NCBI GenBank assembly: GCA_030754885.1
Contig: JASLZL010000106.1
Location: 1,012 to 65,011 of the forward strand
Direction: 5' to 3'
Length of the DNA: 64,000 nucleotides
Source of the DNA: Rhodospirillales bacterium
GTDB lineage: Bacteria > Pseudomonadota > Alphaproteobacteria > Rhodospirillales > JASLLZ01
The number at the start of each line of letters is the position of its first letter. Position 1 is the stretch's first letter. The notes under the pieces are model-generated. The model searched no databases, was not told the origin of the DNA, and saw only the letters and a program-made list of their open reading frames with translations. A program made the position numbers and the translations under genes. Below, in pieces: positions 45,904 to 56,924 of the stretch.

Positions 45904-46890
45904 TCAATCCGGCGCCGTGGCGGCGCGACGCAGGCGGTCGTTGATGGCGCGCCCGAGGCCAATTTCGGGCACCGCCATGACGGCGATCGCGGTGGCACTG
46001 GCCGCGTCGAGGACATGCATCATGGCGAATAGATTGGCCGCCGCTTCGTCGACGTCGCCGGTCGCACTCAGGTTCAGGACTTCGCCCGGTGCCAGCGTCG
46101 GGGCATCGGGGCCAAAGGCGAGCAGGACCTCACCGAGACGGGGATTTCGGGCGTCGAGTCGAAGTGGCGTTCGCGGGGCGTAATGACATCCGATCATGCC
46201 GGGTGAACGGGCGGGTCCGGCCTCCGATTCGGGTTGGGCGAGGGGGCCGATCTCGGCTTCGATGGCTTCGGCGGCAATGCCGCCGGAGCGCAAGAGGACG
46301 GGCTCGGCGGCGCTTAGATCGATGACTGTCGATTCGATACCGACCCGGCACGGCCCGCCGTCGAGAATGAGAGCGACGCGGCCGCCGAGCGAAGCTGCCA
46401 CGTGGCCGGCGGTGGTTGGGCTGACGGTGCCCGAGCGGTTGGCGCTGGGAGCCGCGATTGGACACCCGGCGATTTCAAGAAGTGCCCGGCCCACCGGGTG
46501 ATCGGGAACGCGGACGGCAAGGGTGTCGAGGCCGCTGCTGGTAAGGAGTGAGATCGGGTTGTCAGGACTGCGCGGCAACACCAAGGTCAAGGCGCCCGGC
46601 CAGAAGGCGCGCGCCAGGGCGTGGGCGCGCTGATCGAAGATGACGGTTCGCGCTACTGCTTGCGTATCGGCGAAGTGTACGATTAGGGGATTGAAATCAG
46701 GTCGGTCCTTGGCCGCGAAGACGGCGGCGACGGCGCTGTCGTTGGTGGCGTCGGCCCCTAGCCCGTAGACGGTTTCGGTCGGGAAGGCAACCAACCCACC
46801 GGCACCGATCACGGCCGCCGCCTCGGCAACGGCTTGGTCCGTGGCGGGGTGGATTTGGGTCACTCGGTCGCTCATCGGGAAACGAGGCAT
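45904..46890 (-). CDS. L-threonylcarbamoyladenylate synthase, Sua5/TsaC2 type (YrdC domain + Sua5 C-domain)
   Basis: 328 aa. FPTETVYGLGADA (YrdC fold), then a ~110-aa Sua5-type C-terminal domain. Two in-frame ATGs (46890, 46875) arise from a 15-bp duplication. Confidence 0.85.
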   Translation of the reverse strand: MPRFPMSDRVTQIHPATDQAVAEAAAVIGAGGLVAFPTETVYGLGADATNDSAVAAVFAAKDRPDFNPLIVHFADTQAVARTVIFDQRAHALARAFWPGALTLVLPRSPDNPISLLTSSGLDTLAVRVPDHPVGRALLEIAGCPIAAPSANRSGTVSPTTAGHVAASLGGRVALILDGGPCRVGIESTVIDLSAAEPVLLRSGGIAAEAIEAEIGPLAQPESEAGPARSPGMIGCHYAPRTPLRLDARNPRLGEVLLAFGPDAPTLAPGEVLNLSATGDVDEAAANLFAMMHVLDAASATAIAVMAVPEIGLGRAINDRLRRAATAPD

Positions 46891-47112
46891 CGGGAAACGA
46901 GGTCCGAAGAAAGAGCCGCCACAAAGTGACGGCCCTTATGTCTCTCATTCTGCTTTTGGCTCGGACCATCCGCGGTCATGACCCGGCACTACAGTCACCG
47001 CAAGGGATTGCGGCGGCTAAGGCGTGACCGGAACCCCGGTCCGCTATGTATCGAGCGCTTTTTTTAGGAGCCTCCAATACAATATTAATTGTGCGCCCGA
47101 AGGGGTCGACAG

Positions 47113-47901
47113 TCAAGTATCTTCGTCATCGAAATCTTGCCCGGTGGCGACGAAATGCGGGTTCTCGAACCCCGACTTACCATAGGCCAGATCTCCGCCT
47201 TTGAGGGTCCTCACATGGCCGCCGGCAAAGTTCAGAACGGCGTGCCCCGCGGCGGTGTCCCATTCCATGGTCCGTCCGAGGCGCGGATAGAGATCGGCCC
47301 TTCCCACCGCCACGTGGCAGAACTTGAGCGAGCTGCCGGCGCTGATCTCATCGGTGATGGTGTAGGCGGTCAGAAACGTGTCCACCTCCGCTGAACGGTG
47401 CGAGCGGCTGACCAGGGCGACCAGGCCGTTGGCCGGCGCCGGCCGGGCGGAAATGGTATGCACTTCGGTCCCGCCGATGGTGGCGAAGGCGCCGTCGTGG
47501 CTGCCCCAGTATGTAGCCTCAAGAACCGGTGCGTGGACGACGCCGACTACGGGGCGGCCGGCCTCGATGAGGGCAATGTTAACGGTGAACTCGCCATTGC
47601 GCTTGATGAATTCCTTGGTGCCGTCAAGGGGATCAACGAGCCAGAAGGGCCCGTCGCCAACGGTCGGCGCCAGGCCGTCGGAAAAGGCCTCCTCGCCGAC
47701 GATCGGGAAAGCGTCCGTCATCGCCGTTATCTCCTTAGTGATCAAAGCCTCGGCTCGCTTGTCGGCCGCCGTGACCGGCGACGCGTCGTTCTTGGTCTCG
47801 ACGTCGAAGTCTGAATTGTAGACCTCCATGATCTCCTTGCCGGCGCGCTCGGCGATGTCGCGCAGTTTGTTGATGTCGCCAAGCCCGAAATTAACCGTCA
47901 C
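47113..47901 (-). CDS. cysQ: 3'(2'),5'-bisphosphate nucleotidase CysQ-like (inositol monophosphatase family)
   Basis: FWLVDPLDGTKEFIKRNGEFTVNIALIE and WDTAAGHAV motifs. The likely GTG start at 47901 overlaps the stop of the upstream gene (GTGA). The track ATG at 47934 would overlap by 37 nt. Confidence 0.8.
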   Translation of the reverse strand: MTVNFGLGDINKLRDIAERAGKEIMEVYNSDFDVETKNDASPVTAADKRAEALITKEITAMTDAFPIVGEEAFSDGLAPTVGDGPFWLVDPLDGTKEFIKRNGEFTVNIALIEAGRPVVGVVHAPVLEATYWGSHDGAFATIGGTEVHTISARPAPANGLVALVSRSHRSAEVDTFLTAYTITDEISAGSSLKFCHVAVGRADLYPRLGRTMEWDTAAGHAVLNFAGGHVRTLKGGDLAYGKSGFENPHFVATGQDFDDEDT

Positions 47902-49352
47902 GGCGTTGTTCCTTTTTGCTGGGCCGCGCTCCACAAGGCGGCGGGATCGTCTAAGTCCGCCGCCGACATCTCCTCGGCGATAAAGCGCGAGGCCTGGAAC
48001 GTTTTGGACCAGTGGTCGGCGGCGAAGCCGGCTTTTAGTTTGAGACGATGAAGGAAGGTCTCGGGTTGGGGCAGGCCCTCCCAGACCGAGGGCAGAAACA
48101 CCGCCCGCTTGCCCTTGTCTTGGATGATCAGCCCGTCGATGCCGGGGCGCAATTGGGCCAGAAGATTGGCTTCGTCGGCGATGGTCATGGCAGAGGGCGG
48201 GCTGAGGACCGAGATCGAAAGTTCCAGCCCCGCCACTTCGGCCTCTTTCAGGCCCTTGAAACGATGGTCGCGGAAGGCGGCGGCAAAACCGTTTGCGGCG
48301 GCATCCATAGCCAGTGCCCGATGGGCGAGGATCGAGCCGATGCAGCCCCGCAAAATGCCGTCGCGCTTTAGCGTGATGAAGCAGGCGCCGTTCTCGCGCA
48401 GCTCCGGGGCATAGGCGGCGGGGTCGACCTTCAGCGGGCCGTTATGGGCAAGGCCGTGTTCGATGGAAGCGGCGGCAATCCCCATCAGTGTTGGGCCGTG
48501 GGTCTTCAATAACGTCCGGGTACTTCGGGCGAAGTCGTTCTTCTCGACCTTTTCATTGGCGCCTTCATCGAATATCCAGGCGCCATAGCCGACGACCCGG
48601 TCACGCGGCCCGGCGGTGTCGCCCGAATTACGCAAGTCCACCGTCGTTACCCCCATGCCACGCCGCTTGGCCAGGGCCAGGAGGCCGCTCATGGGAATGC
48701 GCCCGCAGGCATCCTCGCGGCCGATGCCGGCGCTGTCCATGGCCTCGATGGCGTGACACGTCGCCCGGTCGCGGCGGCACGCTGCTTCGTAGTCCAGATG
48801 GTGGCTCAGGTCCGTTGAGATGACGATCAGGGCTTCCGGTCCGCCCCACAAGTGTTCAAGCACCTCGGCCACTTTTTCGGCGCCGGCCTCGCCGACCACT
48901 ACGGGTACGATTGAGAACGCGCCCAAGATGACTTGCAGGAATGGCAGGTGGACCTCCAGGCTATGTTCCTCGCTGTGGGTGGCGTCGAAGACTTCGACCT
49001 GGGGCAGGGTCAGAATGGCGGCGATTGCTTTTTTGTCCACGGGAACATCGCCAAGCGGGGTTGCGAAGGCGTCGGCGCCGCTGACCGCCAGTCCCCGTAC
49101 TGCGACCCGGTGGCAAGGTCCAAGCAGCACGACGCGCTTGATCACGTCGCGGGCCGGCCGGATTCTGGCATAGGCGGTCGCCGCCACCGGGCCGGAGTAG
49201 ATGTAGCCCGCATGGGGCGCGATCATCGCCTTGGGCACCGGCGCGTCGGTCGGTTCAACCTGGGACAGGTGGTATTGGACCGTGGCGTCCAGTTCCTTCG
49301 GATTACCCGGATAGAATGCGCCGGCGACCGCTGCTGGCCTGACCGATGTCAT
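47898..49352 (-). CDS. AmmeMemoRadiSam system fusion protein: Memo-like N-terminal domain + AMMECR1 C-terminal domain
   Basis: 484 aa. Memo part RPAAVAGAFYPGNP...IAPHAGYIYSGPVAA...SHHLD. AMMECR1 part GACFITLKRDGILRGCIGS...LSISVLSPP...KRAVFLPSVWE. Confidence 0.85.
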   Translation of the reverse strand: MTSVRPAAVAGAFYPGNPKELDATVQYHLSQVEPTDAPVPKAMIAPHAGYIYSGPVAATAYARIRPARDVIKRVVLLGPCHRVAVRGLAVSGADAFATPLGDVPVDKKAIAAILTLPQVEVFDATHSEEHSLEVHLPFLQVILGAFSIVPVVVGEAGAEKVAEVLEHLWGGPEALIVISTDLSHHLDYEAACRRDRATCHAIEAMDSAGIGREDACGRIPMSGLLALAKRRGMGVTTVDLRNSGDTAGPRDRVVGYGAWIFDEGANEKVEKNDFARSTRTLLKTHGPTLMGIAAASIEHGLAHNGPLKVDPAAYAPELRENGACFITLKRDGILRGCIGSILAHRALAMDAAANGFAAAFRDHRFKGLKEAEVAGLELSISVLSPPSAMTIADEANLLAQLRPGIDGLIIQDKGKRAVFLPSVWEGLPQPETFLHRLKLKAGFAADHWSKTFQASRFIAEEMSAADLDDPAALWSAAQQKGTTP

Positions 49353-49506
49353 GGCATTGCCCTTCCCTGGTGCTTACTTAGGACCCTCAGGGCGACCTGT
49401 AAAGGGATGGCTGAGCTTAACGTGAGCACGTTGACTCGCGCCGCCGGGGGGCCCAACTATACGGGGCCGGCGTTGATCGGCGACCCGGCGCATAGGGGAG
49501 ACGGTT

Positions 49507-50655
49507 ATGGAGGCTGCGGCTCCGCCAGAGGACTTCGGCGAGGCCTTCCCCGGGCGCTATTGGCGAACCCTGGACGACGGCCGTGTCCAATGCGACTTGT
49601 GCCCGCGCGAATGCAAGCTTAACGAAGGCCAGCGAGGTCTTTGTTTCGTCCGCGCCCGTCACGATGGGCGCATGGTGCTGACCACCTATGGACGCTCCAG
49701 CGGCTTTTGCGTCGATCCCATCGAGAAGAAGCCTCTCAACCACTTCTTGCCCGGCACGCCGGTGCTGTCGTTCGGCACAGCGGGCTGCAATCTGACGTGC
49801 AAGTTTTGCCAAAACTGGGATATCTCGAAGGCCCGCGACTTCGATCGGCTGGCCGACCGGGCGTCGCCCGAGGCCATTGCCAAAGCTGCCCGGCGCTTAG
49901 GCTGTCGCAGCGTTGCCTTCACCTACAACGACCCGGTGATCTTTCTTGAATACGCCATTGACGTGGCTCAGGCCTGCCATGAGGTCGGTATCAAGACGGT
50001 GGCCGTGACGGCGGGCTACATCTGCGACGAACCGCGCCACGAGTTTTACCGCCACATGGACGCCGCCAACGTCGACCTCAAGGCCTTCAGCGAGGATTTT
50101 TATTGGCGGCTCTGCACGTCGAGCCTCGGGCCCGTGCTGGAGACCCTTAAATACCTCAAGCACGAGACCGACGTGTGGTTCGAGATCACCGACCTCCTGA
50201 TCCCCGGAGAAAACGATTCGGAGGCCGAGATCGAAGAGATGACCCAGTGGCTGATGGAGAATTTGGGCCCGGACGTGCCTTTGCACTTCTCGGCATTCCA
50301 CCCCGATTGGAAGATGCTGGATAAGACCAGAACCCCGACCTCGACACTGACCCGGTCACGCGCCATCGCCATGAAGAACGGGCTTGGCCACGTCTACCTG
50401 GGCAACGTCCACGACTTCGACGGCAGCAGTACTTACTGCCGTTCGTGCGGCGCCCTGCTCATTGGACGCGACTGGTACGAGCTTTCGACATGGACGCTGG
50501 ACGACGAAGGCCATTGCCGGGCCTGCGGCACCCGTTGCGCCGGCGTCTTCGACGGTCCGCCCGGTGCCTGGGGCCGCAAGCGTCAGCCGGTGCGCATGGG
50601 ACGCCCCGTCCCCGTTCGGCGCAGGGTGCATGACAGGTCGCCGCCAACCTGTTAA
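49507..50655 (+). CDS. AmmeMemoRadiSam system radical SAM enzyme (PflA-like activase family)
   Basis: 382 aa. VQCDLCPRECKLNEGQRGLCFVR, VDPIEKKPLNHF, radical-SAM cluster GTAGCNLTCKFCQNWDIS, C-terminal CRSCG...CRACG. Confidence 0.85.
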   Translation: MEAAAPPEDFGEAFPGRYWRTLDDGRVQCDLCPRECKLNEGQRGLCFVRARHDGRMVLTTYGRSSGFCVDPIEKKPLNHFLPGTPVLSFGTAGCNLTCKFCQNWDISKARDFDRLADRASPEAIAKAARRLGCRSVAFTYNDPVIFLEYAIDVAQACHEVGIKTVAVTAGYICDEPRHEFYRHMDAANVDLKAFSEDFYWRLCTSSLGPVLETLKYLKHETDVWFEITDLLIPGENDSEAEIEEMTQWLMENLGPDVPLHFSAFHPDWKMLDKTRTPTSTLTRSRAIAMKNGLGHVYLGNVHDFDGSSTYCRSCGALLIGRDWYELSTWTLDDEGHCRACGTRCAGVFDGPPGAWGRKRQPVRMGRPVPVRRRVHDRSPPTC

Positions 50656-50697
50656 ACGTGTCGCGCCATTTCATGAAGCCACAAGTGCGGCCGAGAT

Positions 50698-51687
50698 ATG
50701 TCAAAAAAACAACTGGCCCTGATTCTGAAATTCGGGGTGTCGGCGGTACTGATTTGGTATCTTCTAAGTTACAAAGTTGATCTCGATGCGGCCAAAGCAC
50801 GTCTGTTGGAAGTCGATTTCAACATGGTGCTCCTGGCCGTCTCCCTCTTGTTGATCCAGGCGGCGATCTGCGTCATGCGTTGGGGCGCCGTGCTTGATGC
50901 TATCCGCGAGCCCCTCGGTTTCATTAAGGCGCTCAAGCTCTTCTTGATGGGGTCGTTCTTTAGTCAGGCCTTGCCATCGTCGGTCGGTGGCGATGCCGTG
51001 CGCGTCTATAAGGCCTATCAAGGCGGGCTAAGTTTGAGCGGCGCCGTCAACGGCGTCATGTTGGAGCGCGCGGCTACCGTCGTCGTTATCGTGCCCCTGG
51101 TCGCCGCTTTGATGCCGATTTTTCTGACCCGTGTCGACGATCAGGCGGGCGCGTGGATACTTTCCACCCTCATTCCTTTCGCTGTAGCGGCGGTCGGCGG
51201 CCTGACCCTACTTATGGTCCTCGACCGTTTGCCGGAAAGGCTCATGCGCTGGCGGGTGATCCGGGGGCTGTCCTATCTTGCCACCGACACGCGCCGTTTG
51301 TTCCTGGCCCCACGGCATGCGGCCAAGGCCCTTGGCTGGGCAGCCATCGGCCATGCCAACATAGCACTGGCAATTCTGGTGCTGGCCCGCGGCCTCGACA
51401 TCGACGTCGCCTGGATCGACTGCCTGGTCCTCATGCCCTTGGTGCTGCTGGTGACCACGTTACCCGTTTCCATCGGCGGCTGGGGTGTGCGCGAAGGTGC
51501 CATGGTGTTCGCCTTCGGCCTGGTCGGCGTCTCCGGGGACAGCGCCGTCGTACTCTCGTTCCTGTTCGGCCTCTTGGTTATCGCCGTCAGCGTACCCGGC
51601 GGACTGATCTGGCTGATGAGCGGCGAGAAGCGGGCCGACGTAATCGCCGAATCCAAGGCGCTGTCGGGCGAGCCTGGCGCTAGCTAA
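50698..51687 (+). CDS. Flippase-like (UPF0104 / lysylphosphatidylglycerol-synthase TM-region type) membrane protein
   Basis: 329 aa, ~8 TM. Pattern ...CVMRWGAVL......FLMGSFFSQALPSSVGGDAVRVYKA... typical of PF03706-type proteins. Lies 42 nt downstream of the radical SAM gene. Confidence 0.7.
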   Translation: MSKKQLALILKFGVSAVLIWYLLSYKVDLDAAKARLLEVDFNMVLLAVSLLLIQAAICVMRWGAVLDAIREPLGFIKALKLFLMGSFFSQALPSSVGGDAVRVYKAYQGGLSLSGAVNGVMLERAATVVVIVPLVAALMPIFLTRVDDQAGAWILSTLIPFAVAAVGGLTLLMVLDRLPERLMRWRVIRGLSYLATDTRRLFLAPRHAAKALGWAAIGHANIALAILVLARGLDIDVAWIDCLVLMPLVLLVTTLPVSIGGWGVREGAMVFAFGLVGVSGDSAVVLSFLFGLLVIAVSVPGGLIWLMSGEKRADVIAESKALSGEPGAS

Positions 51688-51715: not shown

Positions 51716-53557
51716 CTATTTGTGAGGCCACGAGCGGACGACGCGCCAGCCGTCGTCGCCGGTCCGTTCCAAAAGATGCGAAGCCCTGGTCGGCAGGTCG
51801 ATGGCCAGGACCTCGCGGACGGCTGCTGTCTGGGAATGCACCAAAATGTGCGTCAATTCGTCGGGGGACTGGACGGCTTGGCGTATGGCATCTGCGCTGC
51901 CATCGTGAAAGGCCGCCAAGTAGCCCCGCAACTCGTCGCGCCGTGCTCCCAGACGGTATTTCGTCATGACGCCCGACTCTCCCGTGCCACGGAGATCGAG
52001 GATCAATATCTTTGATCCCTTTGGTACGACCTCGGCCAAATTCGCGCCGACCATCTGGTAAAGGGGTTTAAGGCCTTCCAGATCGAAGCGAACCTTTTTG
52101 GCAAATGCCAGCGGAGCGACCAGGACCACGATAATCGGCAGCCACACGACAGCGCGCTGGACGGGCCGCCCGCTGAGCGTTTGTTTCCACAGCACGGCCA
52201 AGCCATAGGCGCCAAAGGCAACACTCATCAAACCGAGGTGCATGTTGTAGCGCCAATAAGAAGCGACGCGCAGCGCATCGTATTCGCCAAACTGGGCCAC
52301 GAAAATAAAGTACAAGAAGGCGTTGTAGCCGAGGAACGCACCGCCGACGATGATGGCCAGGCGATCGAAGTTACCGCGAAAGCGAATCAGCCCTTTTACG
52401 CCAATCCCGACGGCCAGAGCCATGATGGCGAAATAGACGCCCTTCTTGCTGGCGACCACCAGCATTTGGAGGAAAATTTGTCCGAGGATGTGAAAATTCC
52501 AGTCCGCAAACGGCCTCAACGTCGCTTCGGTTCCGGGTATTTCGGTCACCACGTGGTATCGCCACAGCCCAAAGATCAGCAGCGGCGGCACCACCATGCG
52601 CGGCAGCATCCGGACCAGATCCTTAAAACGAATCCCGGGATCGCGCAGACCGGCAAGGCCGATGCCGCCAACCAATATGACCACCAAGACAGGGTTGGCC
52701 TGTTTGATGTTGACCAGCACCAGCATGACCAATCCGAACTGCCAGGCCAGGGACCGAGCCCGAATTTGATCGCCCTGGGCCTGGGCTTCCAACATGAACC
52801 ACCCAAGTACGGCGCCCAAGCCTACGGCCACGGCGCTACTCGCGTCGGCATAGGCGGTCAGCGCCACCTTCTGGGCAAAGGTTGGATTAAAGATCGTGCT
52901 GGCCAGAACGGCGGCGGCACTCAGACTCCATCCACGGCTTTGGTTTTCTTCCCGGCCCGCGCCGAGAAGCACAAGGCGGACAACCACCAGACTGAAGGTC
53001 AACAGGAGAAGGGCATTGAGAACGCCGCCGGCGTTCTCGACGTATCCGCCGGCCAAGCGGTTGGCCAGATAGCTGAGCAGGGGCCAGTGATAGGGGTAGG
53101 CGGGAAAGGCACCGCCGGTTGAAGATGTCTCGGCCCAGGGAAAGCCATGGGTCTCCGCCAGGAAGCGGGCTGTGGGAACCCAATGAGAGAACTCGTCCCA
53201 CTCCGATACCCCCTTGGCCGAGGTCAGCAATAAGAGAGGCGCCGCAAGCAACAGCACCTTAGCGACGCCGGGAGAAAACAGGCGCCCCTCGCGACGGTAG
53301 AGGATGACGCCGGCGATTGGCGCCGCGATGAAAAACATCCAAGCAAGAGCTTCGAACGGAGCGACGAAAATGACGCCCAGAGCCGTGAAAACCAGACATA
53401 CGGCGGCCCATCCATAGAGCGTGTCGCCTTCTCTCAAGCGCTCCTGACCGCCGACGAGTCCGCCGACGGATGTCAGTGCTGCCCAGACCGCCAGCGTCGT
53501 CACCAGGGTGACGATCTGACCGCCGTCGGAGAAGAAATAGTCGAGATAAAGGCTCAT
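51716..53557 (-). CDS. Large polytopic membrane protein (~14-16 TM) with C-terminal soluble domain; possible GT-C-type glycosyltransferase (weak)
   Basis: 613 aa. Hydrophobic helices throughout aa 15-490. Loop motif SEWDEFSHWVPTARFLAETHGFP is reminiscent of DE..H loops in ArnT/PMT-like enzymes. ~115-aa hydrophilic C-terminus. Lies 65 nt downstream of the B12-rSAM gene on the same strand. Confidence 0.5.
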   Translation of the reverse strand: MSLYLDYFFSDGGQIVTLVTTLAVWAALTSVGGLVGGQERLREGDTLYGWAAVCLVFTALGVIFVAPFEALAWMFFIAAPIAGVILYRREGRLFSPGVAKVLLLAAPLLLLTSAKGVSEWDEFSHWVPTARFLAETHGFPWAETSSTGGAFPAYPYHWPLLSYLANRLAGGYVENAGGVLNALLLLTFSLVVVRLVLLGAGREENQSRGWSLSAAAVLASTIFNPTFAQKVALTAYADASSAVAVGLGAVLGWFMLEAQAQGDQIRARSLAWQFGLVMLVLVNIKQANPVLVVILVGGIGLAGLRDPGIRFKDLVRMLPRMVVPPLLIFGLWRYHVVTEIPGTEATLRPFADWNFHILGQIFLQMLVVASKKGVYFAIMALAVGIGVKGLIRFRGNFDRLAIIVGGAFLGYNAFLYFIFVAQFGEYDALRVASYWRYNMHLGLMSVAFGAYGLAVLWKQTLSGRPVQRAVVWLPIIVVLVAPLAFAKKVRFDLEGLKPLYQMVGANLAEVVPKGSKILILDLRGTGESGVMTKYRLGARRDELRGYLAAFHDGSADAIRQAVQSPDELTHILVHSQTAAVREVLAIDLPTRASHLLERTGDDGWRVVRSWPHK

Positions 53558-53622: not shown

Positions 53623-55248
53623 TCAGTGCGCCGATTGATGTTCGCCTTGACGGGCCGGTTGTCCTACCACTTCGCTACGCAGCCGGTTGCGGCGAAGCAC
53701 GTTGGCGATGCCCATCTCGGCACGAGACTCCTGCTTGCCCCGGTACAAGTTGTAAAGGATCTTGAACGGCCGCCCCGGTCGGTAGAGCCACGAGGTGCCA
53801 TAAAACAGGCACAGACCGAATATGCGCATGATCTTTAGATTTCGATCGGAGAAGTTTTCACTGTACGACTTGGTCATCGACGCATCGGCATAGGAACGCA
53901 AGCTGTCGTAATAGGCGTTATCTAGCTTGATATTGCCCTGTTGGTAGATTTGGTCGAACAATTCGGAACCCGGATACGGGGAGAACGCCCAGATGCTCAG
54001 ATCATAGGCCCCGGCGAGGGCCATTCGCATGGCAAAGCCGAGCGATTCGCGAACCTCTTTGTAAGTTTCGCCGGGGAAGCCGAGCATGATATTGCATTTG
54101 ACGTTAAGTCCGGCCCGGTAGCTGCTTTTGATCGAAGCCAGAACGGCGTCCGTCGTAATTCTCTTCTTGATGCGCTTAAGCACCGTTGGCGAACCGCTCT
54201 CTGGTGAATAAGACAGATTTCGGCAGCCTGACTCGAAAAGCAACTCCGCCACCTCTTGGTCGATGGCTTCCGATCGGGTTCCGCTTGGTAATTGCCAGGT
54301 AAAGGTCAGGTTGCGTTCCTTGATCTTGCGGCAGAAATCGACGATCCACGACTTCTTCACAATTGCCGTGAGGTCATAGAAATCAAAGTTCTCGGCCCCG
54401 AATTCACGCTGGTAGTATTCAAGCTCGTCCAGCAGCAGGTCCGCATCGCGGGGGATCCACCGCGTCGTCCACATCTGGGGGTTTGAACAAAAGGTGCATT
54501 GATAGGGGCATCCACGGCTGGCCATCACGGGCATGGACCGGCCGCGATTGATGCCGAAACCGTATCCGCGTTCAAGATAAGCCTCGATGGGCAACAAATT
54601 CCACGCTGGCCACGGGATGCCGTCGATGTGACGCGTTCGGGCCCGTCGTTGGTTTGTGACAACGGTGCCGTCCTTGGCTTTGTAGACGACGCCTTCAATG
54701 ACCACCGGGTCGAGTTTGCCCGAAGCGTACATTTGCACGAGCGTCAGAACCGTTTCCTCGCCTTCACCCAGAATCCCGATGTCTAGCTCGCTTTCGCTCA
54801 GGCTTGGTTCGGGCATCGCGGTGATGTGTTCCCCGCCGCCGATCAGCAGGGCATGGGGAAATCGCTCGCGGATAAGGGCGACGAGCTCGCGGCACGGTGG
54901 CCACTCGAACGAGAATCCGGCGGCGACACCGATGATGGTGCAGCCGGGATCAATACGCTCAATGGTCTGCCCGGGCGAAAGGCCATAGAGGAAGCAGTCG
55001 TTGTCATAGGGATGGCGGGTATCAAGGGATTCACCGACGGCATCGATAACATCGACCTCATAGCCGGCGTCCTGCAACGTCCCAGCCACATATGCCAGGC
55101 CGAGCGGCGGCGTGAACATGGTTGTAATGTTATGCCGTGGAACGACAATCGACGGCCGGATCAGGCAGATCTTTGTGGCCTGCCCAGGGGATGGCCCGGT
55201 GGCTTCCGTGCGGCGTGATGCGGTGCTGTCCGCGGTGATTTCGTTCAT
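53623..55248 (-). CDS. B12-binding-domain radical SAM protein (class B)
   Basis: 541 aa. N-terminal cobalamin-binding-like domain (ICLIRPS...PPLGLAYVAGTLQDAGYEVDVID...LIGGGEH). CX3CX2C in ASRGCPYQCTFCS. SPESGS and GFPGET motifs. Confidence 0.85.
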   Translation of the reverse strand: MNEITADSTASRRTEATGPSPGQATKICLIRPSIVVPRHNITTMFTPPLGLAYVAGTLQDAGYEVDVIDAVGESLDTRHPYDNDCFLYGLSPGQTIERIDPGCTIIGVAAGFSFEWPPCRELVALIRERFPHALLIGGGEHITAMPEPSLSESELDIGILGEGEETVLTLVQMYASGKLDPVVIEGVVYKAKDGTVVTNQRRARTRHIDGIPWPAWNLLPIEAYLERGYGFGINRGRSMPVMASRGCPYQCTFCSNPQMWTTRWIPRDADLLLDELEYYQREFGAENFDFYDLTAIVKKSWIVDFCRKIKERNLTFTWQLPSGTRSEAIDQEVAELLFESGCRNLSYSPESGSPTVLKRIKKRITTDAVLASIKSSYRAGLNVKCNIMLGFPGETYKEVRESLGFAMRMALAGAYDLSIWAFSPYPGSELFDQIYQQGNIKLDNAYYDSLRSYADASMTKSYSENFSDRNLKIMRIFGLCLFYGTSWLYRPGRPFKILYNLYRGKQESRAEMGIANVLRRNRLRSEVVGQPARQGEHQSAH

Positions 55249-55418
55249 TCAAGTCTTTCCTATCGATTCGCGGCGCGAAGGTATCAAAAAAACGAAACCG
55301 CGAATACCCGCTATTGAATGGGCGCCGATCAATCCTTTTTCATTTTCGGCGTTACGGGTACTCTCTCCGCCATCGAACACCAAGGCCCGGACGCGGCCAT
55401 CGCCCGAGGGAGGTATCC

Positions 55419-56924
55419 ATGAAGATTGCATTTTCCCAACCTGCTCTGCCCGAGACCGGAGTTCTTGTGGTGACGGCGCTTGAGGGCGCCAAACTGTCCG
55501 ACTCCGCCAAGCAACTTGATAGGCGGATGAAAGAAGGGCTGACCCGGGCCATCAAGGCCAGCCGCTTCAAAGGCGGGAAGTCACAAAGCCTCTCTCTCCT
55601 GGTGCCGGCGGGAACTCGGCTCGACCGGGTCTTGGTGCTCGGCTTGGGTAAGGCGAAAGAGATTGACGCGCCCGGCCTGCAGGCGGCTGGCGGGCGGCTC
55701 TACTCGACGCTTGGGCGTAAGGTCAAGGCCGCGACGGTGGCCGTCGACGCTGTTGACAAGTGTAAGCTGAGCGCGGCCCAGATAGCGGCGGATTTGGCTT
55801 TCGGCGCGCGGCTTAAGTCCTATCGCTTCGACAAGTACCGAACTAAGGAGAAGGCAGAAGAGAAGCCGACCCTGCAGCGTCTCATCTTCGCGTGTTTGGG
55901 CACGACGCGCGCGCGCGCGATTCATCGGGGATTGGACAAGGTGGCCGACGGCATCTTCTTCACCCGTGACCTGGTCTCCGAGCCGCCCAACGTGCTTTAC
56001 CCCGAGACCCTGGCCCGCCACGCCCGAAGCCTGGCCAAACTGGGCGTCAAGGTCGAGGTCCTGGGCATTGCACAGATGAAGAAGCTTGGCATGGGGGCGC
56101 TGCTGGGTGTGGGCCAGGGCAGTGTCCGCGAGTCGCGCCTGGTGGTCATGCGCTGGGACGGTGGAGGGCGACGCGGGCCGGGCCGGGCGTCGGCGCCTAT
56201 CGCCTTTATTGGCAAGGGGGTCACCTTCGACACCGGCGGAATCTCGATCAAGCCGGCAGCCAATATGGGTGATATGAAATGGGACATGGGCGGTTCTGCT
56301 GTCGTCATTGGCCTGATGAAGGCGTTGGCCGGGCGCAAGGCCAAGGTCAACGCCGTCGGCGTGGTCGGCCTGGTTGAAAACATGCCCGATGGCAATGCTC
56401 AGCGGCCCGGAGACATTGTTACTTCCATGTCGGGCCAGACCATTGAGGTGCTCAACACCGATGCCGAGGGGCGCTTGGTCCTGGCCGACGCGCTGTGGTA
56501 TTGCAAGGAGCGTTTCAAGCCAAAGTTCATGATCGATCTGGCGACGCTTACCGGCGCCATCATCATTGCCCTCGGTCACGAGACGGCGGGCATGTTCTCC
56601 AACAACGACGTCCTGGCCGGCCGCCTCGCCGCCGCTGGCAAGGCGGTCCGCGAACCGGTATGGCGCTTGCCCCTTGGCGAGGACTACGACAAGGCTCTCA
56701 AGTCGACAATTGCCGACATGCGCAATATCGGCGGCCGTGCCGCCGGCTCGATCACGGCGGCCCAGTTTCTGCAACGCTTCGTCGGCAAGGTCCCGTGGGT
56801 GCATCTCGACATTGCCGGCGTTGCCTGGTCGGAAAAGGAGGCGCCGACGGCGCCCCGGGGTGGTACCGGCTTTGGAGTGCGTCTCTTGGACCGCCTGGTC
56901 GCCGATCACTATGAGGGACGATAG
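55419..56924 (+). CDS. pepA: Leucyl aminopeptidase
   Basis: ATG at 55419 after GGGAGG (MKIAFSQP...). VGKGVTFDTGGISIKP. NTDAEGRLVLADAL. Confidence 0.95.
   Translation: MKIAFSQPALPETGVLVVTALEGAKLSDSAKQLDRRMKEGLTRAIKASRFKGGKSQSLSLLVPAGTRLDRVLVLGLGKAKEIDAPGLQAAGGRLYSTLGRKVKAATVAVDAVDKCKLSAAQIAADLAFGARLKSYRFDKYRTKEKAEEKPTLQRLIFACLGTTRARAIHRGLDKVADGIFFTRDLVSEPPNVLYPETLARHARSLAKLGVKVEVLGIAQMKKLGMGALLGVGQGSVRESRLVVMRWDGGGRRGPGRASAPIAFIGKGVTFDTGGISIKPAANMGDMKWDMGGSAVVIGLMKALAGRKAKVNAVGVVGLVENMPDGNAQRPGDIVTSMSGQTIEVLNTDAEGRLVLADALWYCKERFKPKFMIDLATLTGAIIIALGHETAGMFSNNDVLAGRLAAAGKAVREPVWRLPLGEDYDKALKSTIADMRNIGGRAAGSITAAQFLQRFVGKVPWVHLDIAGVAWSEKEAPTAPRGGTGFGVRLLDRLVADHYEGR

Follow-up and report, generated by a model that had tools for sequence, protein, structure and literature searches.

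A canonical AmmeMemoRadiSam module and its lineage-specific neighbours in a Rhodospirillales bacterium

AmmeMemoRadiSam is a system of three proteins, an AMMECR1-like protein (A, TIGR04335), a Memo-like protein (B, TIGR04336) and a radical S-adenosylmethionine (SAM) enzyme (TIGR04337). The system is conserved across all domains of life, with MEMO1 and AMMECR1 as its disease-linked human relatives. In the literature searched the name was found only in annotation lists, and neither a functional study nor a characterised activity was found. It is a real orphan, for which a solid contextual lead would be valuable. Here we describe an AmmeMemoRadiSam locus in a stretch of 64,000 nucleotides (the window; contig JASLZL010000106.1, assembly GCA_030754885.1) from a Rhodospirillales bacterium. 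An earlier reading of the DNA letters and their open reading frames (ORFs), here called the sequence-only reading, had described the wiring of this locus as unusual and had offered a phosphatase and a flippase-like membrane protein encoded beside the module as a concrete functional lead. We find that the locus holds an ordinary AmmeMemoRadiSam module. We read it, with a probability of about 0.7, as a canonical, self-contained module set in a conserved backbone of housekeeping genes in a marine alphaproteobacterium of Rhodospirillales-like type, with lineage-restricted bystanders as its neighbours. The locus supplies no strong lead, and the phosphatase and the flippase-like protein are at best a weak clue to the function of the module.

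Described relatives of the two non-radical components include human MEMO1 and AMMECR1 and archaeal AMMECR1 proteins. Eukaryotes have MEMO1 and AMMECR1 as separate proteins and have no radical SAM partner, unlike the window. Binding of phosphopeptides, copper or iron has been reported for MEMO1, but such functions are not established for the bacterial proteins. Burroughs et al. 2019 are said to have proposed a lipid or isoprenoid reading of Memo contexts. An RNA-base modification role was proposed for AMMECR1 in 2007 from its RAGNYA fold and its archaeo-eukaryotic conservation, and fusions of Memo to AMMECR1 were already reported at that time (PMC2034487). The radical SAM core of the third component is distantly like that of the pyruvate formate-lyase activating enzyme and other glycyl-radical activases. 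In the window the module consists of the following features.

47898..49352, minus strand: Memo-AMMECR1 fusion (AmmeMemoRadiSam proteins B and A), 484 amino acids (aa); TIGR04336 and TIGR04335, PF01875 and PF01871
49353..49506, no strand: divergent intergenic region between the module halves, 154 bp; sequence read directly
49507..50655, plus strand: AmmeMemoRadiSam radical SAM enzyme, 382 aa; TIGR04337

Judged by profile scores, the family assignments are strong and lie far beyond chance. Residues 5-261 of the fusion match TIGR04336 with 261.1 bits (cut-off 26) and PF01875 (Memo) with 177.8 bits, and residues 289-461 match TIGR04335 with 176.3 bits (cut-off 99) and PF01871 (AMMECR1) with 134.3 bits. 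The radical SAM enzyme matches TIGR04337 with 658.2 bits (cut-off 220), and the match runs from position 2 to position 349 of the 349 in the model. The genes are divergent and 154 bp apart, and all three components are encoded together. The single 484-residue polypeptide and the divergent PflA-like enzyme of the sequence-only reading are thereby borne out, and the profile check that it had proposed for the three families and for PF03706 and PF00459 gave scores above cut-off throughout. In every testable respect the locus agrees with AmmeMemoRadiSam: it shares the three above-cut-off signatures, the adjacent divergent genes, and the CX3CX2C motif with N- and C-terminal Cys clusters, and it differs in nothing essential.

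The CX3CX2C motif of the radical SAM enzyme reads CNLTCKFCQNW, and C94, C98 and C101 are invariant in an alignment of 23 homologues. The N-terminal C29, C32, C36 and C46 and the C-terminal C311, C314, C337 and C340 are invariant in the same alignment. The sole solved relative of the enzyme is PflA-AE, a distant one (3c8f, E 8.5e-6), and compared with the activases the window enzyme has extra Cys-rich N- and C-terminal extensions. Assignment as a glycyl-radical activase was rejected; TIGR02493 gives 55.1 bits against a cut-off of 231.75, all activase models score far under cut-off, and there is no glycyl-radical enzyme gene nearby. The N-terminal half of the fusion aligns to residues 5-190 of human MEMO1 (E 7e-27; 3bcz, 7kq8), with APHAGY, GPCH, EHSLEVHLP and DLSH kept between the two. 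APHAGY, GPCH and DLSH hold candidate metal-site residues; the alignment ends at residue 185, before the counterpart of the Cys ligand that lies nearer the C-terminus of MEMO1. The other half of the fusion has the LRGCIG cysteine motif (GILRGCIGS in translation) and can be aligned to the archaeal AMMECR1 structures of PH0010, MM0484 and ST0229 (1vaj, 1zq7 and 1wsc; E 1e-8 to 3e-11).

No Rfam family matches the whole 64-kb window at the gathering threshold, nor the interval 46800-51000 at E up to 1, which speaks against a riboswitch between the divergent genes. No tRNA or tmRNA genes were found in the window (1-64000). The divergent region itself (49353-49506) holds a single weak inverted repeat only. 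In a promoter and terminator scan the number of sites was not above that in shuffled controls, and the scan is used here for one point alone, the lack of a terminator-like site in the 42-nt gap behind the radical SAM gene.

The gene neighbourhood was compared in two surveys of loci with their flanks rather than of whole genomes. The radical SAM-anchored survey, searched with the alignment of 23 homologues, comprises the 80 loci most similar to the enzyme of the window, taken from species-representative genomes with flanks of up to 10 kb. It spans at least ten phyla (Alpha- and Gammaproteobacteria, Gemmatimonadota, Nitrospirota, Acidobacteriota, Planctomycetota, Chloroflexota, Myxococcota, Verrucomicrobiota and Zixibacteria among them); archaea, Firmicutes and eukaryotes are absent from it and Deltaproteobacteria are likewise unsampled. 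For the PF03706-anchored survey an alignment of seven orthologues of the membrane protein was searched against metagenome contigs; this gave 80 loci that are conditioned on PF03706 and include the source contig of the window (L081). Gene calls in the surveyed loci are six-frame ORFs with approximate start positions. Neighbours were scored against the window proteins and against orthologue-built profile hidden Markov models (HMMs; E<0.01), and the neighbour ORFs of the radical SAM loci were also clustered de novo. Counts of CysQ, and of radical SAM genes upstream of PF03706, take loci with more than 1.5 kb of flank. Counted as Rhodospirillales-like were records labelled Rhodospirillales, Rhodospirillaceae, Magnetovibrio, Thalassospira or Defluviicoccus, together with unclassified alphaproteobacteria that have the same flanks.

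The Memo-AMMECR1 fusion, known since the 2007 report, occurs in 14 of the 80 radical SAM-anchored loci, four of them gammaproteobacterial or unclassified Pseudomonadota loci, and in 30 of 33 loci of the PF03706-anchored set; the wiring is not unusual. Memo adjoins the radical SAM gene in 54 of 80 loci and AMMECR1 does so in 38. In this sample, which is biased to the closest homologues, the radical SAM enzymes are 62-77% identical to that of the window both inside and outside the lineage, and the co-encoded Memo (46-71%) and AMMECR1 (35-61%) are far more diverged. The high identity of the radical SAM enzyme over at least ten phyla reflects either very strong constraint or horizontal spread. De novo clustering of the neighbour ORFs of the 80 loci gave no universal fourth partner of the module. 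The top clusters are CysQ, PepA, Sua5, a putative HolC and PF03706, all from the same lineage. With no accessory family recurring across some ten phyla and the radical SAM enzyme so strongly conserved, the comparison suggests a self-contained system that may act on a common cytosolic substrate and not on a lineage-specific envelope lipid.

About 25 of the 80 radical SAM loci are without Memo or AMMECR1 within 10 kb, though their enzyme is about 70% identical to that of the window (L005, L008-L010, L013-L015, L022-L024, L027, L029, L042-L044, L047, L050, L067, L069-L072, L075, L077 and L080). These loci belong mainly to Gemmatimonadota, Thermoanaerobaculia and Nitrospirota, with some Gammaproteobacteria. 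In 16 further loci Memo is present and AMMECR1 is not adjacent.

The genes that flank the module on its two sides are the following.

47113..47901 (longer call to 47934), minus strand: CysQ, 3'(2'),5'-bisphosphate nucleotidase; TIGR01331, PF00459
50698..51687, plus strand: stand-alone PF03706 (PplT/YbhN-like, flippase-like) membrane protein, 329 aa; PF03706
45904..46890, minus strand: Sua5/TsaC L-threonylcarbamoyladenylate synthase, downstream of cysQ; TIGR00057 (188 bits), PF01300, PF03481
45242..45907, minus strand: tandem DUF1330 protein, 221 aa; PF07045 in two stretches
55314..56924, plus strand: PepA leucyl aminopeptidase; phmmer and annotation in relatives

The phosphatase is a CysQ by TIGR01331 (283.2 bits, cut-off 228.8) and PF00459 (177 bits), as had been proposed. 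It shares the DPLDGT and WDxAAG motifs with E. coli CysQ; it differs in falling under the cut-off of the enterobacterial model NF008182 (217 against 379) and in lying in a lineage gene string with Memo/AMMECR1 and Sua5. The overlap of the fusion TGA with the cysQ GTG (GTGA at 47898-47901) is confirmed. AAAGGA lies about 8-13 nt upstream, and the closest CysQ homologues have 262 aa, which fits a GTG start at 47901. The cysQ gene is thus placed where it is probably co-transcribed with the fusion. CysQ removes adenosine 3',5'-bisphosphate (pAp), which is made by reactions dependent on 3'-phosphoadenosine 5'-phosphosulfate (PAPS) and by phosphopantetheinyl transfer. Radical SAM enzymes release 5'-deoxyadenosine and not pAp, so there is no obvious metabolic link between CysQ and the module. 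We infer that cysQ would encode the ordinary pAp phosphatase of the cell, a housekeeping bystander that probably shares the transcript of the fusion; its orthologue in L166, kept in the absence of the module, lends this indirect support.

The membrane protein encoded 42 nt after the radical SAM gene was likewise named correctly; PF03706 matches residues 9-297 with 154 bits (cut-off 33.4) as the sole domain, and TIGR00374 stays under its cut-off (39.2 against 43.2 bits). The protein shares a full-length PF03706 match with the stand-alone PplT-type family members E. coli YbhN, P. aeruginosa GpgF and HpnL and with the flippase domain of MprF. The gpgSDF genes include GT4 and deacetylase partners, and none lies beside the PF03706 gene of the window. 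Assignment as MprF was rejected (329 aa and no aminoacyl-phosphatidylglycerol synthase domain), as was assignment as HpnL in a hopanoid context (no HpnL match). Proteins of this stand-alone type occur almost everywhere among prokaryotes (bioRxiv 10.1101/2022.03.11.483950). The 42-nt gap contains no terminator-like site, and by this spacing the gene is probably co-transcribed with the radical SAM gene, yet we judge it to be functionally independent.

The recurrence of the two neighbours in other genomes, on which the sequence-only reading had staked its proposal, stood within one alphaproteobacterial lineage and failed elsewhere. CysQ lies near the module in 9 of 10 Rhodospirillales-like loci with enough flank versus 0 of 32 elsewhere, and PF03706 directly follows the radical SAM gene in 6 of 13 Rhodospirillales-like loci versus 0 of 56 elsewhere; both counts outside the lineage are zero even by profile HMMs at E<0.01. 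Other alphaproteobacteria (among them loci labelled Rhizobiaceae, Beijerinckiaceae, Xanthobacteraceae and Benzoatithermus, and L001) carry the module without CysQ or PF03706. In the PF03706-anchored set CysQ lies past Memo/AMMECR1 in 25 of 26 loci with enough flank. The radical SAM gene lies directly upstream of PF03706 in 56 of the 80 loci, almost always with PepA downstream; 15 loci with enough upstream flank have no radical SAM gene there and nine others are not classifiable (56 of 71).

The adjacency of CysQ and PF03706 to the module is real but lineage-specific, and a string of housekeeping genes passed on by descent is an adequate account of it. In annotated relatives (L162, L163, L167, L168 and L170) the order of the backbone is HolC-PepA-[PF03706-rSAM<>Memo/AMMECR1]-CysQ-Sua5-...-FAD oxidase, where rSAM is the radical SAM gene and FAD is flavin adenine dinucleotide, and in L162 the backbone continues into LptF-LptG-LptD. 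The window has a GlcD-like FAD oxidase further out on the cysQ side and an ORF overlapping PepA that is a putative HolC. Sua5 is syntenic with CysQ in 33-37 loci. PepA lies downstream of PF03706 in 53 of the 80 metagenome loci (phmmer) and is annotated as Peptidase_M17 in L162, L167, L168 and L170; the PF03706-to-PepA gaps are underestimated, with a PepA query start that is probably about 100 nt too far upstream, and are not relied on. In the window the start of the DUF1330 gene overlaps the Sua5 stop by 4 nt, and the string of fusion, cysQ and sua5 runs on into another unrelated gene. PepA and HolC are a known conserved but functionally unrelated pair; in E. coli, pepA-holC lies divergent from lptFG. 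For this reason conserved adjacency here cannot alone be read as function.

The longest PepA ORF of the window has a TTG start, and about 34 codons at its N-terminal end are poorly conserved. An internal ATG (MKIAFS...) is probably the real start.

Both neighbours can be separated from the module in both directions. The module is found without CysQ in L002 and L126, where the fusion, radical SAM, PF03706 and PepA genes are kept and FliG or EamA/ferredoxin genes occupy the CysQ position. CysQ is found without the module in L166, in which a 61%-identical CysQ accompanies a Sua5 remnant, an M17 peptidase and an FAD oxidase. In loci where the string is interrupted by insertions, CysQ remains joined to Sua5 (L003/L136, L054, L124, L138 and L160) or to AMMECR1 (L020 and L033). 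By starts that are extrapolated, the median distance between the stop of AMMECR1 and the start of CysQ is 75 nt, with the -4 overlap seen only in the window, and the gap from CysQ to Sua5 is at most 20 nt in 25 of 37 loci. On the other side, the radical SAM gene occurs without PF03706 inside the lineage in L046 (direct radical SAM-to-PepA junction), L033 (Thalassospira), L007, L020, L054, L065 and L161 (Magnetospirillum), and in L165 a histidine kinase gene is inserted between the two. PF03706 and PepA remain together in L084 and L087, with an epimerase or other genes upstream in place of the radical SAM gene. In a neighbour-joining tree of PF03706 the members that are not linked to radical SAM genes are interspersed among the linked ones. 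Neighbours that are lineage-restricted and separable in both directions leave the inference of a phosphorylated, membrane-bound substrate unsupported.

The halves of the module tolerate separation as well, and the junction between them behaves like an insertion hot spot. In 18 loci of relatives 1-8 kb of heterogeneous cargo lies between Memo/AMMECR1 and the radical SAM gene (L003, L004, L011, L041, L096, L101, L103, L115, L123, L135, L140 and L141 among them). The cargo includes a MacB-type permease, a chromate transporter, an FAD monooxygenase, TauD, an RND pump and a TRAP transporter. Such heterogeneity indicates that unrelated genes settle freely at this locus.

In two separately sampled relatives (L163/L164 and L165) a small GNAT acetyltransferase gene lies directly upstream of the radical SAM gene on the same strand, between it and Memo. 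In L163/L164 an Aminotran_5 gene is also present between the two.

Several observations weigh against this reading of the neighbours as inherited bystanders. The strongest comes from Magnetospirillum sp. WYHS-4 (L161), in which Memo overlaps AMMECR1 and AMMECR1 overlaps CysQ by 4 nt, with Sua5, PF03706 and PepA missing from the surroundings; a functional operon would be expected to have this appearance. The radical SAM-PF03706 pair stays joined when cargo splits the module halves. Within Rhodospirillales sensu lato the adjacencies are well kept despite order-level divergence, with identities of about 66% for PepA, 57% for CysQ and 49% for PF03706. The lineage is itself defined partly by record titles and partly by the shared flanks. 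In addition, the neighbour-joining tree of the radical SAM enzymes is star-like and does not resolve a single origin of the CysQ linkage, while the PF03706-linked loci form one subclade. The Magnetospirillum arrangement and the pair kept across cargo insertions leave room for a functional signal. The module may have been recruited in Rhodospirillales sensu lato to a lineage-specific pathway that uses CysQ and, in a Magnetovibrio/Thalassospira-like subclade, the PF03706 protein, though we hold this improbable. One version would have the module make or modify a sulfated or phosphorylated envelope lipid.

Between PF03706 and PepA the window has two further genes on the opposite strand, which the sequence-only reading had taken as a supporting second radical SAM/membrane-protein operon.

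51716..53557, minus strand: 613-aa membrane protein, predicted GT-C (glycosyltransferase C) fold; no Pfam or NCBIfam family, AlphaFold and Foldseek
53623..55248, minus strand: B12-binding radical SAM enzyme, 541 aa; PF02310 and PF04055

The 613-aa protein is predicted to have a GT-C glycosyltransferase fold. An AlphaFold model from 25 sequences has a predicted local distance difference test score (pLDDT) of 85 and a predicted template modelling score (pTM) of 0.86, and its top nine Foldseek matches in the PDB are all GT-C enzymes (AftA, STT3, ArnT, PglB and Pmt4) with probability 1.0 and a template modelling score of only about 0.4. The protein has 211 homologues; almost all of them come from Rhodospirillales, and no Pfam domain matches any of them. 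S118, W120, D121, E122 and F123 are invariant. This acidic WDEF motif, which may lie in an early periplasmic loop, and the predicted fold would be shared with the GT-C glycosyltransferases ArnT, AftA, PglB/STT3 and PMT; the protein differs from them in its lack of Pfam or NCBIfam membership and in its pairing with a B12-radical SAM enzyme. By its domains the latter is a class-level member only of the B12-binding radical SAM methyltransferase-like enzymes. Named equivalogs (Sden_1168 P-methyltransferase, BchE, HpnJ and others) were rejected with best scores of 164.6 against 575, 135 against 481 and 123.8 against 577.6; for HpnJ, in a hopanoid context, the score is 124 against a cut-off of 578. 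To our knowledge the pairing is not a described system, and we know of no B12-radical SAM enzyme as a GT-C partner. It is the more novel item of the locus.

The pair is not context for AmmeMemoRadiSam. Neither protein has a counterpart in any of the 80 radical SAM-anchored loci. The pairing recurs next to groES/groEL in L169, L172 and L173, in the last of these near a GT2-DedA-PMT_2 set. A homologue of the 613-aa protein lies inside a polysaccharide cluster in L171, and in L170 another is found two genes away from PF03706, on the same backbone but past HolC. The pair stands between PF03706 and PepA only in the window and its nearest relatives (L081-L083). A unit that recurs elsewhere and is local only in the nearest relatives points to an independent envelope-glycan unit that recently moved here; if anything it fits PF03706 and not the module.

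This bears on the best surviving alternative, in which the PF03706 protein serves envelope glycoconjugate synthesis, translocating a polyprenyl-phosphate sugar or glycolipid for periplasm-facing GT-C enzymes such as the 613-aa protein, and has nothing to do with the upstream radical SAM enzyme. Several PF03706 orthologues that lack the radical SAM gene, and that are 45-50% identical as are many linked ones, close sugar-nucleotide or polysaccharide clusters at their 3' end. These clusters encode a GDP-mannose 4,6-dehydratase, an epimerase, a GT2-methyltransferase and an asparagine-synthase-like protein, and the PF03706 start often overlaps the preceding stop. The adjacent protein of predicted GT-C fold and its homologues in L170 and L171 point the same way, as do the characterised relatives GpgF and the MprF flippase domain, which act on glyco- or aminoacyl-lipids. 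However, the GT-C/B12-radical SAM pair adjoins PF03706 only in the closest relatives of the window, most loci with the order radical SAM-PF03706-PepA have no glycosyltransferase beside PF03706, and it is itself unproven that stand-alone PF03706 proteins act as flippases. We regard this role as possible, and put it forward tentatively.

A role of the module in RNA or nucleotide-base modification, following the Balaji-Aravind hypothesis of 2007, is unlikely, although it is the sole functional proposal in the literature searched. It would make Sua5/TsaC, which acts in synthesis of N6-threonylcarbamoyladenosine (t6A), and not CysQ the relevant operon partner. The RAGNYA fold and archaeo-eukaryotic conservation of AMMECR1 were the argument for RNA base modification (PMC2034487), and Sua5 is in the same gene string. 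The Sua5 linkage is as lineage-restricted as that of CysQ (0 outside), the cysQ and sua5 genes of the window are separated by 222 nt with a promoter-like site inside, and there is no direct evidence.

More doubtful still is the proposal that CysQ and PF03706 are functional partners of AmmeMemoRadiSam, in which the system would have a phosphorylated substrate anchored in the membrane (lipid or polyprenyl) that is trimmed by the phosphatase and translocated by the flippase-like protein. The stop/start overlap and the 42-nt gap do suggest co-transcription, both adjacencies are kept in many Rhodospirillales-like genomes and Magnetospirillum retains Memo-AMMECR1-CysQ in a different context, but neither neighbour occurs outside the lineage, fewer than half of the lineage radical SAM genes in the unbiased survey are followed by PF03706, exceptions occur in all four directions, CysQ is an equivalog-level pAp phosphatase packed closer to Sua5, radical SAM chemistry yields 5'-deoxyadenosine and not pAp, the B12-radical SAM/613-aa operon is unrelated, and the same logic would equally tie the module to t6A tRNA modification through Sua5 or to PepA.

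We therefore keep to a self-contained module with inherited neighbours, for which a working scheme can be outlined at low certainty. The radical SAM enzyme would cleave SAM to a 5'-deoxyadenosyl radical and abstract hydrogen from a soluble, universally available substrate. The substrate could be held or presented by the AMMECR1 domain with its RAGNYA fold and conserved LRGCIG cysteine, and the His/His/Asp-His metal site of Memo might then carry out follow-up redox or ring chemistry. The fusion would merely fix a 1:1 stoichiometry of partners that are encoded as adjacent separate genes in many other genomes. The PF03706 protein would be a PplT/YbhN-type lipid- or glycolipid-translocator-like protein with its own role in envelope glycoconjugates, a neighbour through inherited gene order. 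The negative outcome for the proposed lead argues against pursuing a plausible but weak hypothesis on this evidence alone.

Two minor observations concern the PF03706 and GT-C-like families. L102, L104 and L106 have a second PF03706 paralogue, more distant (E 1e-37), immediately after another gene for a B12-binding radical SAM enzyme (about 1661-4239 in L102). These loci are rich in sugar-nucleotide genes, which hints at a co-occurrence of PF03706 and B12-radical SAM proteins in envelope glycan clusters. In L170 (1-6700) the GT-C-like gene lies beside an insertion sequence (IS)/transposase cluster (DDE_Tnp_1, rve), which fits mobility within the region.

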